Part shown: positions 2,932 to 37,938 of the stretch, piece by piece
Layout of the letters: each line of letters starts with the position of its first letter
Position numbering within the stretch: position 1 is the stretch's first letter
Sequence record: NC_073319.1
From: Escherichia phage SZH-1
Length of the DNA: 43,969 nt
Reading direction: 5' to 3' (one strand)
Program-made: the position numbers and the translations under genes
Notes under the pieces: generated by a model
The model's input: only the letters and a program-made list of their open reading frames with translations
Database searches by the model: none
What the model was told of the DNA's origin: nothing

Positions 2932-3432
2932 TCATTTAACAGCCCTCCCGATAGCCTCAGCCTCTTGCCACGGTTTACCGTCGAACAGGGCCAGACGCCC
3001 TGCCGTACGGCGACGCAGGCCTAGTAGCGGTTTGCCGTTCTGGTTGATGAACAGCGCCAGCTTGGCACGCAGGGCCACAACATCGCCCGAGCGGAGTGCC
3101 TTACCCGTGCCGGTGGTAGCTGCAATCACACCGGCGCCCGCGTTATACACCAGGTCGCAAACAGCGTCGAACTGCGCCTGTGTCAGTGAATGGTGCGCCA
3201 CCGAATCCACCGCAGCTACGGCCTTAGCCATATCGCGATTAAGTAACAGGAGGCCTTGTCCCGGTGTGATAGTCTGCCCGGCCTTAACATGTGGGCCATA
3301 GCTTCCGTACCCAATAGTAAGGTACTTCTCATTTGGCGTAGCACGATATGCAGTTCCACGGAACCCCTCGAACGCAGCGGTAAAATGCAATCCATTATCT
3401 GAAATGTTTCGAGACACGCTTATGCCCTCCAT
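2932..3432 (-). CDS. Endolysin, phage lysozyme (GH24, T4/lambda-R-like)
   Basis: N-terminal motif FEGFRGTAYRA...YLTIGYGSYG typical of GH24 lysozymes; follows two membrane-protein genes. Confidence 0.85.
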   Translation of the reverse strand: MEGISVSRNISDNGLHFTAAFEGFRGTAYRATPNEKYLTIGYGSYGPHVKAGQTITPGQGLLLLNRDMAKAVAAVDSVAHHSLTQAQFDAVCDLVYNAGAGVIAATTGTGKALRSGDVVALRAKLALFINQNGKPLLGLRRRTAGRLALFDGKPWQEAEAIGRAVK

Positions 3433-3667
3433 ACGACAGCCACGCCTGACGAATCTGGCGCAGCGCGACTAATGTGATTAATGTCTCAGGCAGCGTAGGC
3501 GACATGCTGCCCTGTAACAGGTGAATACATCCGGCGGCACAGACGATAGCAGTCAGGATATAGAGAACACGCCCGAACAGCCCGTCGTCCACGCGTTCAT
3601 TATACACGTTGAACAGGGACGAAGCGCCCATTGCCAGCATTACGACAAACCAGAATAGCTCAGTCAT
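3395..3667 (-). CDS. Holin or antiholin-like membrane protein (2 TM, basic C-terminus)
   Basis: Internal ATG at 3667 overlapping the stop of 3660..3968; TM segments LFWFVVMLAMGASSLF and VLYILTAIVCAAGCIHLL. Confidence 0.5.
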   Translation of the reverse strand: MTELFWFVVMLAMGASSLFNVYNERVDDGLFGRVLYILTAIVCAAGCIHLLQGSMSPTLPETLITLVALRQIRQAWLSYGGHKRVSKHFR

Positions 3668-3968
3668 GCGGTCCTCCTGGGCGGGCAATATCGCCGCCCG
3701 ATACGATGCCAGAAAGGCGGGAATAGATAGGCATCCAGAGAATGGCAATGATGAATCCGAGGCCAGCTATCTCGCGCTCACCGGTAATACCAAACCATTG
3801 AGCAGCAAGAGGCGCACCGAAAATGGCGCACGCGAAGCCGGTGAGAAGAAAGACCAGTCCGTCAATCGGCCCGGATATAGACTTTTTATGTTGTCTTAGT
3901 CCGACCAATCCACCGACCAGTGCGGCAGCGAGAAGCCACCCTGTCACTGTTTCAGTAAATTTATCCAA
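3660..3968 (-). CDS. Holin-like membrane protein (about 3 TM)
   Basis: TTG start with GGAGGA 6 nt upstream; three hydrophobic helices; immediately upstream of the endolysin. Confidence 0.55.
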   Translation of the reverse strand: MDKFTETVTGWLLAAALVGGLVGLRQHKKSISGPIDGLVFLLTGFACAIFGAPLAAQWFGITGEREIAGLGFIIAILWMPIYSRLSGIVSGGDIARPGGPHD

Positions 3969-4027
3969 GATGAATCCTCCAGGTGCGTATTAAGTATGCA
4001 GTAACTGGAGGATACCACGGGTAGGAA

Positions 4028-4465
4028 TTATCCTAATAGTTGTTTGGTAATAATCTCGCCGCCTGTGTTGGTGTCGAATTGCGCGGCTACTGTTACCGAA
4101 CGTGCCGCTGTATGGCCTAAATACATAGCCGCTAACGCATATGGCGAGCCAGAACCAACGGCGGCAAAGCCGTCCGCAATCGGAATAACCGAACTAAGCG
4201 CGCAATCCCATGATTTATAAAACGAGACTTTGTACACCTTTTTTGTGTCTTTCATGAATACCAAGGCTTCGAAATCGAAGTCGTATGATTTGGGGTTAAG
4301 TACGCCATTATCACGGATTAGCATAGCCCCAACCCCTGCATCTCCAGCCACCCCGATAACGGCAAAGTCATTCTCGTATATCTTCGTGTATGTGTTGTAG
4401 ATGTGGTCCCCTGCTACTCGGGTATCGCAGGCCATTGTCTTTCCGTCAAATGCGATAGTAGTCAT
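4028..4465 (-). CDS. HslV (ClpQ)-like Ntn-hydrolase peptidase
   Basis: N-terminus M-TTIAFDG (catalytic Thr after Met removal, cf. HslV TTIVSVRR) and GSGSPYALAA (cf. HslV GSGGPYAQAA). Confidence 0.65.
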   Translation of the reverse strand: MTTIAFDGKTMACDTRVAGDHIYNTYTKIYENDFAVIGVAGDAGVGAMLIRDNGVLNPKSYDFDFEALVFMKDTKKVYKVSFYKSWDCALSSVIPIADGFAAVGSGSPYALAAMYLGHTAARSVTVAAQFDTNTGGEIITKQLLG

Positions 4466-4755
4466 TTATGTCTCCAGATGTATTGTCGTCTCTGCGGTTT
4501 CGTCGGAATATCATCATAGCCCAACGATTTCCAGTAATTAAATAACCGATTAGCGATAGCCGCGCGTTCCTTTGTCTTGAACTCACCGAGATTCACGGCC
4601 TTCCCGTTCTGGAATCCACAGGCGCGGGCAGCTTTGCGTCTGGCCTGAATCTCGGGGTACATCGCGTTACGGCGACGCTTGTATATCTGCGTTTTAGCTC
4701 TCGGTGACAGCGGCGCAATGCCGCTTCGTTTCAGGATGTCAGTTGCGAGGCTCAT
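4462..4755 (-). CDS. Hypothetical basic protein (97 aa)
   Basis: ATG start; ATGA-coupled to the HslV-like gene. Confidence 0.5.
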   Translation of the reverse strand: MSLATDILKRSGIAPLSPRAKTQIYKRRRNAMYPEIQARRKAARACGFQNGKAVNLGEFKTKERAAIANRLFNYWKSLGYDDIPTKPQRRQYIWRHK

Positions 4756-4817
4756 TCACATACACGCCATAAGAAACATACATACGCCAAGTATGGATAG
4801 CACAATTATCAGCCCCA

Positions 4818-5093
4818 TTACTCCACCCCTTCCACATGCGTAACTGACCCACAGTTCGCGCACTCGACGTAATCCGGGAACTGGTCTTTATATTTCTGTA
4901 ACTCAGCTTCCGCCTTTTCGGCACGTGCCAAAAAGCTGAAAGCGTCATTGAGTACCTGCACACGCCACGCCATGAGTTCTTTGAACTTACGCTCAAGTTC
5001 CTCATAGTCTTCGTATCTTACAAGATTACCCGCGTCACATTCATAAACTTCCATTTCCCAGTCATACCCGTATGTTTCATATCTCTGTACCAT
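4818..5093 (-). CDS. Hypothetical protein (91 aa)
   Basis: Internal ATG (MVQRYETYG...) placed next to the upstream stop; C-terminal CANCG. Confidence 0.45.
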   Translation of the reverse strand: MVQRYETYGYDWEMEVYECDAGNLVRYEDYEELERKFKELMAWRVQVLNDAFSFLARAEKAEAELQKYKDQFPDYVECANCGSVTHVEGVE

Positions 5094-5094
5094 G

Positions 5095-5298
5095 TTATTT
5101 CTCCTGTTTACCAAGTCGCTTAGGTGAGCATATAGCGCGTACCTCTGAATCGTTAGGCTTGTCACCCTGAAACAGGAAGTGCGCGTTCTCTGCGGCGCGT
5201 GCCGCTGACTGGCACGCCTCCATCGAGTAAAACGTTTCTGATGCCGCTAGTTGCATCTGGCCCGCAGACAGTACCCAGATAAAGAGGATGCTGGTCAT
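5095..5298 (-). CDS. Small protein with signal-peptide-like N-terminus
   Basis: MTSILFIWVLSAGQMQLAASE...; ATGA overlap with upstream gene. Confidence 0.5.
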   Translation of the reverse strand: MTSILFIWVLSAGQMQLAASETFYSMEACQSAARAAENAHFLFQGDKPNDSEVRAICSPKRLGKQEK

Positions 5299-6395: not shown

Positions 6396-6436
6396 AACAA
6401 AAATGAGAAAAATGATACGCTGCTGTGTAGCAGCGT
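6396..6436 (-). terminator. Putative intrinsic terminator after the DUF551-like gene
   Basis: Perfect hairpin ACGCTGCT-gtgt-AGCAGCGT followed on the minus strand by a T-rich tract. Confidence 0.45.
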
Positions 6437-6469
6437 AAGTCACTCGGTAAAATCCCAAACTATTGAACA

Positions 6470-7599: not shown

Positions 7600-7620
7600 G
7601 GGCAGGCTTAAGGCCTGCCC
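7600..7620. promoter_or_regulatory. GC-rich hairpin in the divergent control region
   Basis: GGGCAGGC-ttaag-GCCTGCCC, an 8-bp perfect stem inside the 495-nt non-coding region. Confidence 0.35.
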
Positions 7621-7897
7621 AATAATCGTTACATTTTTACGGTTGCGAATCTACGGCACTTTAAGAAAATCAGATACTTAAGAGATTTGCTGCCGTTGAG
7701 AATAGAGCTTGCCCAGGGCAACCGGAGATACTTAGGAAGGAAAGTTACAATAATTCTCGTGTTCAGTAAGCCTGTGTTTAACCCTTTGCTTGTCGCACGG
7801 GTTAAACATTCTTACAAGGTGAACAGGAATCAAAGTAACTAAGATACAGAAGCACCTTAAACGAAGATTTTCATAATGTCAATAGGTGCGATTATGT

Positions 7898-7926
7898 TTG
7901 ATTTCCCATTATTCGCAATGTATACT
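7898..7926 (+). promoter_or_regulatory. Rightward promoter TTGATT-N17-TATACT for the replication operon
   Basis: Hexamers at 7898..7903 and 7921..7926, about 30 nt before the 7959 gene. Confidence 0.45.
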
Positions 7927-37456: not shown

Positions 37457-37706
37457 TCCTCACGTAATCCTGCAACATGAACACTTTCAGTCTCAGTTGC
37501 CGTACACATTCGGCATTCTGAACGTCGATAGCCAAATCTTCGTCAGCGTCGCTACTTGGGGGCGCCAGTTTGCACGGCGGCTGCATCATCGTCGTATCCG
37601 GGGATGGAATTGGCGTTTGCGACGGCGCGGGACTTGAGCAGGACGCGAGCATCGTCAAAAGTGCACACGCTACGGCCAGGTGTTTCAATGTACTTAACGA
37701 CTTCAC
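37443..37706 (-). CDS. o-spanin (Rz1-like outer-membrane lipoprotein)
   Basis: GTG start with AGAGGTGA RBS; lipobox LTMLASC; Pro-rich mature part; overlaps the i-spanin 3' end out of frame. Confidence 0.6.
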   Translation of the reverse strand: MKSLSTLKHLAVACALLTMLASCSSPAPSQTPIPSPDTTMMQPPCKLAPPSSDADEDLAIDVQNAECVRQLRLKVFMLQDYVRNILE

Positions 37707-37938
37707 GGGTAATCACCTCTGATTTCGTCTTGCCTTCGTTGTCAGCGGCTGCGGCCTTTGATTCGTCCTGCTGCTGCCGTTGTGTTTTCTTCGCTAACTC
37801 AGCCTGTGCTTCCTGCTGTTGCTGCGAAACGAGATTCGCCCGGCCTTCGTTCCAGCCGCTGCGGTACTGGTAGATGCCGTGTGCGTAAGCCAGGATGATG
37901 AAACATGCTCCCGCTACGACAGTTGCTTTAAGATTCAT
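37552..37938 (-). CDS. i-spanin (Rz-like)
   Basis: N-terminal TM VVAGACFIILAYA, Q-rich coiled-coil, periplasmic C-terminus; AAAGGAG RBS. Confidence 0.7.
   Translation of the reverse strand: MNLKATVVAGACFIILAYAHGIYQYRSGWNEGRANLVSQQQQEAQAELAKKTQRQQQDESKAAAADNEGKTKSEVITREVVKYIETPGRSVCTFDDARVLLKSRAVANANSIPGYDDDAAAVQTGAPK

Follow-up and report, generated by a model that had tools for sequence, protein, structure and literature searches.

The window, as the whole analysed stretch of 43,969 nucleotides from Escherichia phage SZH-1 (NC_073319.1) is called here, carries at 4028..4465 (minus strand) a gene for a proteasome-like peptidase of 145 aa which, judged by the published traits of the PPH family and by its match to PHROG 1040, is a member of that family. 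The explanation favoured here, to which as a whole we give a probability of roughly 60%, is that the protein is an N-terminal-threonine peptidase that would act independently of HslU and of ATP. The preliminary description of this DNA called it a "HslV-like proteasome-type peptidase". The N-terminal threonine, the proteasome type and the catalytic set are borne out by the analysis, whereas the relation to HslV holds only at the superfamily level.

The same description treated the protein as new. The PPH family was, however, published in 2021 (PMC8665760), and the copy from Shigella phage phiSD1, 98.6% identical at the protein level, already bears the annotation "peptidase HslV family". The occurrence of the family in viruses and its lack of helix H2 were published at the same time, and PHROGs as well as many GenBank records carry the label. 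A literature search for experiments on PPH or HslV-like proteins of phages returned nothing beyond the 2021 bioinformatic paper and annotation mentions; another paper (PMC12345140), concerned with host hslV expression under a T7-like phage, was set aside as irrelevant to PPH. What is added here is that the HslV label fails curated tests, that the full seven-residue proteasome site is present, that the HslU pocket residues are gone, and that phage K1G represents a natural deletion of the gene.

Gene Call and Family Assignment

The window comprises nearly the whole genome of a Kagunavirus-like lytic siphophage (Guernseyvirinae), the nearest record being Shigella phage phiSD1. The PPH gene starts with an ATG and ends with a TAA at 4028-4030, and the 145 aa of its product include Met1. 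The M-TTIAFDG N-terminus and the internal AVGSGSPYALAAM motif, both named in the preliminary description, which left the (minus) strand unstated, are read from the sequence, as is a Shine-Dalgarno-like GGAGA (4471..4475, minus) 5 nt 5' of the ATG. The ORF upstream (4462..4755, minus; 97 aa; PHROG 9632) terminates in a TGA overlapping the PPH start as ATGA, an arrangement that suggests translational coupling and is found in identical form in phages phiEc3, NTEC3, RP180, and 590B. The 97-aa protein is basic, matches PHROG 9632 with an E value of 1e-53, and is kept in Kagunaviruses both with and without PPH; its weak PADLOC match to PD-T4-10_B (E 0.015) is probably due to chance.

That the ORF at 4028..4465 is a real gene, far beyond chance, is confirmed by the PHROG 1040 "peptidase HslV family" match (E 5e-35, residues 1-142), by 263 close homologues of the protein (down to E 1e-89), by the 3721 clusters at 50% identity retrieved in an exhaustive profile search (E <= 1e-3), and by pairwise dN/dS values of 0.07-0.30 among seven Guernseyvirinae copies, which show that the gene evolves under purifying selection. 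Nearly all relatives from the exhaustive search are 130-160 aa long and start with MTT(I/V)A; an MTTI start was counted in 100 of the 146 full-length-range representatives tallied. The list of 324 sequences given in 2021 (PMC8665760) falls far short of the family, which runs to thousands of clusters at 50% identity.

The PPH family was named and described by Fuchs et al. in 2021 by means of bioinformatics only; its members are proteins of about 140 residues from Caudovirales phages and prophages, lacking helix H2 and a propeptide; no smaller homologue of the proteasome is known, and PPH was presented as the first genuinely viral one (PMC8665760). The window protein has the corresponding length of 145 aa, the MTT start, no propeptide, the Thr1/Asp17/Lys33 triad and the oxyanion Gly47. 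It is carried by a Kagunavirus-like phage, and its relatives occur in tailed phages and prophage-like loci.

Against the curated HslV equivalog models the protein scored 14.1 bits with TIGR03692 (cut-off 157.75) and 13.5 bits with NF003964 (cut-off 137). Since both were missed about tenfold, it is not a true HslV, and "HslV-like" is a valid label at the superfamily level only. The score with the Pfam model PF00227 (Proteasome), 11.2 bits, also lies below the gathering threshold of 22.4; 74 of 133 diverse relatives, which are 28-48% identical to the window protein, match this model at E <= 0.01. A profile of the 133 diverse members matches HslV (E 3e-11), the Betaproteobacteria proteasome homologue BPH (4e-10), and proteasome beta5 (5e-10) about equally well.

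Active Site

The window protein was aligned through the family HMM (hmmalign) to E. coli HslV and to the Thermoplasma acidophilum beta subunit, both references having been checked against the PDB. Conservation is given for the 133 diverse relatives, and all codons are on the minus strand. Thr2 (4460..4462), which becomes the catalytic Thr1 after Met1 removal, is invariant, as is Lys28 (4382..4384), the counterpart of the catalytic Lys33. Asp14 (4424..4426), the counterpart of proteasome Asp/Glu17 and HslV Asp17, and Gly41 (4343..4345), equivalent to Gly47 of the oxyanion hole, are conserved in at least 90%. The G104-S105-G106 triplet (4148..4156) corresponds to proteasome Gly128-Ser129-Gly130 and contains the counterpart of HslV Ser124; both glycines are invariant and S105 is conserved in at least 90%. 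D131-T-N-T134-G135 (4061..4075), mapped to the Thermoplasma acidophilum beta subunit, corresponds to proteasome Asp166-x-x-Ser169-Gly170, with D131 and G135 conserved in at least 90%.

By alignment, every residue of the canonical proteasome active site, i.e., Thr1, Asp17, Lys33, Gly47, Ser129, Asp166, and Ser/Thr169, is thus shown to have a counterpart in the window protein, D-x-x-T-G-G included, and most of the seven positions are either invariant or at least 90% conserved in the relatives. A loss of the catalytic set relative to HslV, which would have spoken against the preliminary description, was not seen: T2, D14, K28, and S105 align to the HslV threonine nucleophile, Asp17, Lys33, and Ser124 (in GSG).

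Methionine aminopeptidase removes Met before Thr. As the threonine stands directly after Met1, the host enzyme should expose Thr1 as the nucleophile without autoprocessing. The mature protein would probably assemble into a homo-oligomeric ring by analogy with its relatives BPH and HslV, and in the infected cell it might act on peptides, on unfolded proteins, or on a single specific target. The phage would gain a conditional fitness benefit rather than an essential step. A more specific version, on the doubtful side though not far-fetched, is an ATPase-independent stand-alone "mini-proteasome", a ring or an open oligomer, which late in infection would cut a defined host target, e.g., a stress-response or defence protein, or recycle peptides. 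When the window protein and two distant relatives were run against the PADLOC defence models, no match was obtained.

An intact site is no proof of stand-alone or generic proteolysis, because BPH, the structurally closest characterised relative, gave no activity in standard assays with peptides and casein although its Thr1 is exposed (PMC5777263), and HslV alone is only weakly active (PMC5777263, PMC6429459). The inertness of BPH on generic substrates speaks in favour of the best surviving alternative, in which PPH is non-degradative and uses Thr1 for a specific ligation, transpeptidation or amide hydrolysis, in the manner of connectase, on one protein or non-protein amide. That the fold can carry out sequence-specific ligation is shown by monomeric connectase (PMC7980362); moreover, PPH is the most reduced member of the superfamily, having lost H2, and connectase has lost H1/H2 (PMC8665760). 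This alternative is improbable, being rated below the peptidase acting without HslU and ATP.

Predicted Fold and Helix H2

The AF2 monomer model was built from the 133 diverse sequences; an earlier input of 25 close homologues had given a pLDDT of 45.7. In the model, helices span residues 43-51, 107-115, and 120-130, a loop spans residues 52-64, and the last strand residues 138-142, with no visible signal peptide or membrane segment. The predicted alpha-beta-beta-alpha Ntn fold is superimposable on proteasome beta subunits and is equidistant from BPH, 20S beta, and HslV. Taken together, the model and the alignment give the architecture described for PPH, a beta-sheet core with H1, H3, and H4 and without H2 and S12/H5.

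Residues 52-64 (4274..4312, minus) are modelled, with a pLDDT of about 63, as a short loop at the site occupied by helix H2 in HslV, BPH, and 20S beta. In the alignment this region appears as a deletion of 13-20 residues relative to HslV and the Thermoplasma acidophilum beta subunit; the C-terminal 27 residues of the latter are also without a counterpart in the window protein. BPH has H2, a long acidic pore loop and two heptameric rings (PMC5777263), and the short loop in place of its H2/pore-loop region sets the window protein apart from it. Since H2 helps to shape the pore and the apical face in the relatives, the assembly of PPH could differ from theirs.

Some of the database matches concern longer or more distant proteins. 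The window protein spans only positions 14-155 of the 277-position PHROG 1040 profile, and the best viral structural match in BFVD, A0A1W6DWU9, is 263 aa long and 54% identical over 131 residues. Longer variants with an additional C-terminal region therefore exist; these may be what Fuchs et al. call "RPC", or else mis-called gene fusions. The BFVD search with the model yielded about 35 viral structure clusters with a proteasome-like fold (E <= 1e-3), most of them labelled uncharacterised; they include proteins of the jumbo phages Noxifer, Phabio, Special G, Moabite, and ME3, of Caulobacter phages, and of Vibrio phage VpV262. Far outside the PPH family, too, phages therefore commonly encode proteasome-like proteins.

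The HslU Partner Question

The preliminary description was right that no HslU-like ATPase gene lies in the window. Among the twenty longest ORFs a Pfam search found no HslU/Clp/ClpX-type AAA+ gene; what it did find were an AAA_25 primase-helicase, a PD-(D/E)XK nuclease, a ssDNA-binding protein, DNA polymerase A, a SNF2 helicase, tail and head proteins, and terminase. A scan for the Clp-type Walker A motif found none in any frame of the window, and no Clp/HslU-type Walker A was present among the ORFs neighbouring PPH in 68 diverse IMG/VR loci.

HslU activates HslV by a C-terminal tail inserted into an inter-subunit pocket (Phe54, Phe57, Gln114, and Ala79/Lys80; PMC6429459), and the HslU-responsive pore cluster Arg86/Arg89/Lys90 lies on helix H2 of HslV (PMC5777263). 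Pocket residues Phe54, Phe57, and Gln114 are replaced by Ala47, Ile50, and Pro95 in the window protein and the 79/80 segment is deleted, a mapping that is less certain because the H1/H2 alignment is approximate. In BPH the HslU interface residues are likewise lost, and HslU was not pulled down (PMC5777263). Given this precedent and the loss of the pocket residues, docking of PPH onto host HslU is unlikely.

The alternative that PPH is a second protease core, which docks on host HslU and turns ATP-dependent degradation towards targets of the phage's choice, draws on the fold and catalytic residues common to PPH and HslV. E. coli and Shigella hosts encode HslU, and PPH has no ATPase partner gene of its own. 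Set against this are the absent H2, the five HslV pocket residues (Phe54, Phe57, Gln114, Ala79, and Lys80) that are now Ala, Ile or Pro or deleted, the 14 bits obtained with HslV equivalog HMMs whose cut-offs are 137-158, and the failure of BPH, the closest solved relative, to pull down HslU (PMC5777263), all of which make redirection of host HslU quite unlikely.

Gene Neighbourhood and the Lysis Cassette

The PPH gene belongs to a long array of small, leftward-directed genes and, in agreement with the preliminary description, is the last one before the lysis cassette, in which all genes are on the minus strand. A holin gene with a TTG start (3660..3968, minus; PHROG 2359) lies 59 nt 3' of PPH and is followed by a second holin gene (3395..3667, minus; PHROG 2508), with its ATG at 3667, whose 273-nt form is also present in phiSD1 and K1G, and by an endolysin gene (2932..3432, minus; PHROG 33703 and PHROG 7).

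An RNA hairpin (3974..4013, minus) with a 9-bp stem, AUCCUCCAG(N22)CUGGAGGAU, separates the stop codon of PPH from the TTG of the holin gene. Its MFE is -23.6 kcal/mol in an 81-nt context, with a z of -3.5, and none of 200 shuffled sequences folds as well. The Shine-Dalgarno of the holin gene, GGAGG, is buried in the 3' arm, and the TTG of this gene is a weak start codon. The hairpin, the sequence of which is also found in K1G, a phage without PPH, may control holin translation, perhaps being relieved by ribosomes that terminate on the upstream gene.

A terminator-like site was sought between PPH and the holin gene and none was found, and a promoter scan was no better than chance, with 6 sites against 7.0 expected in shuffled sequence. 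Upstream of PPH in the leftward array there are two strong hairpins resembling intrinsic terminators at 7600-7620 and 6416-6437 (minus), GGGCAGGC...GCCTGCCC and TACGCTGCT...AGCAGCGTA, each followed by a T run, and a divergent promoter-like pair at about 7890-7926. These features suggest that the leftward unit is subdivided; the promoter-like pair is to be read with the chance-level outcome of the scan overall.

The holin-holin-endolysin cassette is accompanied in K1G (L088) by Rz/Rz1-like spanin genes annotated within the head module at 4663-5158, about 8 kb away on the circular map. This phage group therefore has its lysis genes at two separate loci; a probable counterpart of the K1G spanin genes in the window lies near 37552-37938 (minus).

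In the Guernseyvirinae the PPH gene is always directly 5' of the holins (phiSD1, BPS11Q3, phiEc3, NTEC3, RP180, and 590B), and this fixed position, in the same leftward array, suggests from gene order that PPH would be expressed with the lysis genes or just before them. It also lends something to the idea that PPH tunes lysis, e.g., by cleaving a holin, an antiholin or another timing factor co-expressed with the cassette, as do a distant relative about 500 nt from an M15 endolysin gene and the missing terminator-like site before the holin. Holins, however, make up just three of the 134 immediate neighbours in diverse relatives, which is about the level of chance, K1G keeps both the lysis cassette and the hairpin without PPH, and the AF2 model has no visible signal peptide or membrane segment, so that a role in lysis timing is also given little credence.

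Distribution and Loss in K1G

Relatives occur in 304 GenBank phage records and in prophage-like loci. Searches for related loci, made with a 10-sequence sub-alignment, found them in 331 IMG/VR stretches and, in a scan of bacterial genomes, at 60 loci, mostly from Proteobacteria. Outside the Guernseyvirinae the position of PPH varies, the gene lying, for instance, about 500 nt from the M15 endolysin gene mentioned above (L002) or among early-type genes (L005). In a prophage (L003 6001-6441; GCA_027366555.1, CP114886.1) a 37%-identical PPH is located inside the head-tail joining module, with head-completion genes (Gp13-like major capsid, DnaT_2-like protein) on one side and tail terminator and tube genes on the other. 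The structural module of this prophage resembles that of the window in having Terminase_6N, DUF4055 portal, Mu_F, and Phage_tube_2, so that the place taken by this accessory gene differs considerably between related phages.

No conserved partner gene was found: upon BLAST clustering of ORFs, no neighbour cluster occurred in more than 9 of the 68 diverse IMG/VR loci. The 134 immediate neighbours are spread over 105 PHROGs, of which terminase large subunit (5), head closure (5), holin (3), and methyltransferase (3) are represented most often. The 60 bacterial loci also gave no conserved neighbour, with just 34 PPH genes recovered by crude ORF calling in GC-rich DNA.

Of the 113 Escherichia/Kagunavirus records with a match to the flanking DNA, about 31 encode PPH, as against essentially all Salmonella Jerseyvirus records. 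The type Kagunavirus, K1G (NC_027993), has no PPH copy anywhere in its genome, the best tblastn match having an E value of 0.45. Its junction (L088 39520-39560), ...CATAAAT-AAACCGTTATTAAGATAA-TTCCTACCC, was compared with window positions 4028-4470. Just after the stop of the 97-aa gene K1G retains the last ~18 nt of the PPH ORF (K-P-L-L-R-stop vs K-Q-L-L-G-stop), which indicates a deletion in K1G and not an insertion in the other phages. As this close relative has lost it by deletion, PPH is an accessory, dispensable gene.

The deletion also bears on the notion that PPH is a virion-maturation protease for head, connector or tail proteins. Some distant relatives do lie within a head-tail joining module, as in the prophage described above, and the 134 immediate neighbours include five head-closure Hc1, two adaptor Ad1 and two tail-completion genes. 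Most relatives are, however, outside structural modules, and in the window a long distance separates PPH from the structural genes, its neighbours being small genes beside the lysis cassette. K1G has the same structural module with PPH deleted, so virion assembly does not need it; a role as prohead protease was rejected for this reason, and virion maturation in general is very improbable.

Interference of phages with host proteases is known, and homology to HslV exists at the superfamily level, but poisoning of host HslUV by co-assembly into HslV rings or by HslU titration, which would shield phage proteins, is just as hard to credit. A pure inhibitor could do without a catalytic site, whereas very divergent members have Thr1 and Lys33 without exception and retain Asp17, Ser129, and Asp166 in at least 90% of cases. 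Mixed rings are unlikely at about 25% identity to HslV and with H2 missing, and relatives reside in prophages of very diverse bacteria. Among the three modes of action offered by the preliminary description, i.e., with host HslU, alone, or as a poison of HslUV, acting alone is the one favoured, and the other two are disfavoured.

Significance

The gene as such is no discovery, and the interest lies in its biology; PPH is very widespread and is the smallest proteasome homologue known. If the stand-alone "mini-proteasome" proved true, PPH would be the first enzyme of the proteasome family from a virus for which a role has been demonstrated, and its missing H2 would imply a new mode of assembly or gating in the proteasome family. 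The present phage offers a convenient handle, as it belongs to lytic phages of E. coli and Shigella whose natural relatives (e.g., K1G) differ by a clean PPH deletion with an exact knockout junction. How a proteasome-like protease lacking an unfoldase serves a virus could thus be tested directly at this locus.

Comparison with Known Relatives

Compared with the 20S beta subunits (PF00227, MEROPS T1) the window protein lacks the propeptide, H2, S12/H5, and an alpha-subunit partner. Connectase, the archaeal proteasome-like protein ligase, and Anbu belong to the same superfamily and share the N-terminal nucleophile. HslV (ClpQ), a dodecamer of two hexameric rings, is 31 residues longer in E. coli; it has H2 with the Arg86/Arg89/Lys90 pore cluster, both of which are absent from the window protein, in which the residues of the pocket for the HslU tail are not conserved and the gene of which has no hslU alongside. 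On the other hand, the window protein keeps the proteasome-type D-x-x-S/T-G-G, which did not align to E. coli HslV. BPH (PDB 5ovs/5ovt) has about 185-200 aa as against 145 aa here, and its gene is chromosomal in bacteria, whereas that of the window protein is phage-borne. From the PPH family as described by Fuchs et al. in 2021 the window protein differs in no respect that was found, and it can be regarded as an ordinary member of that family.
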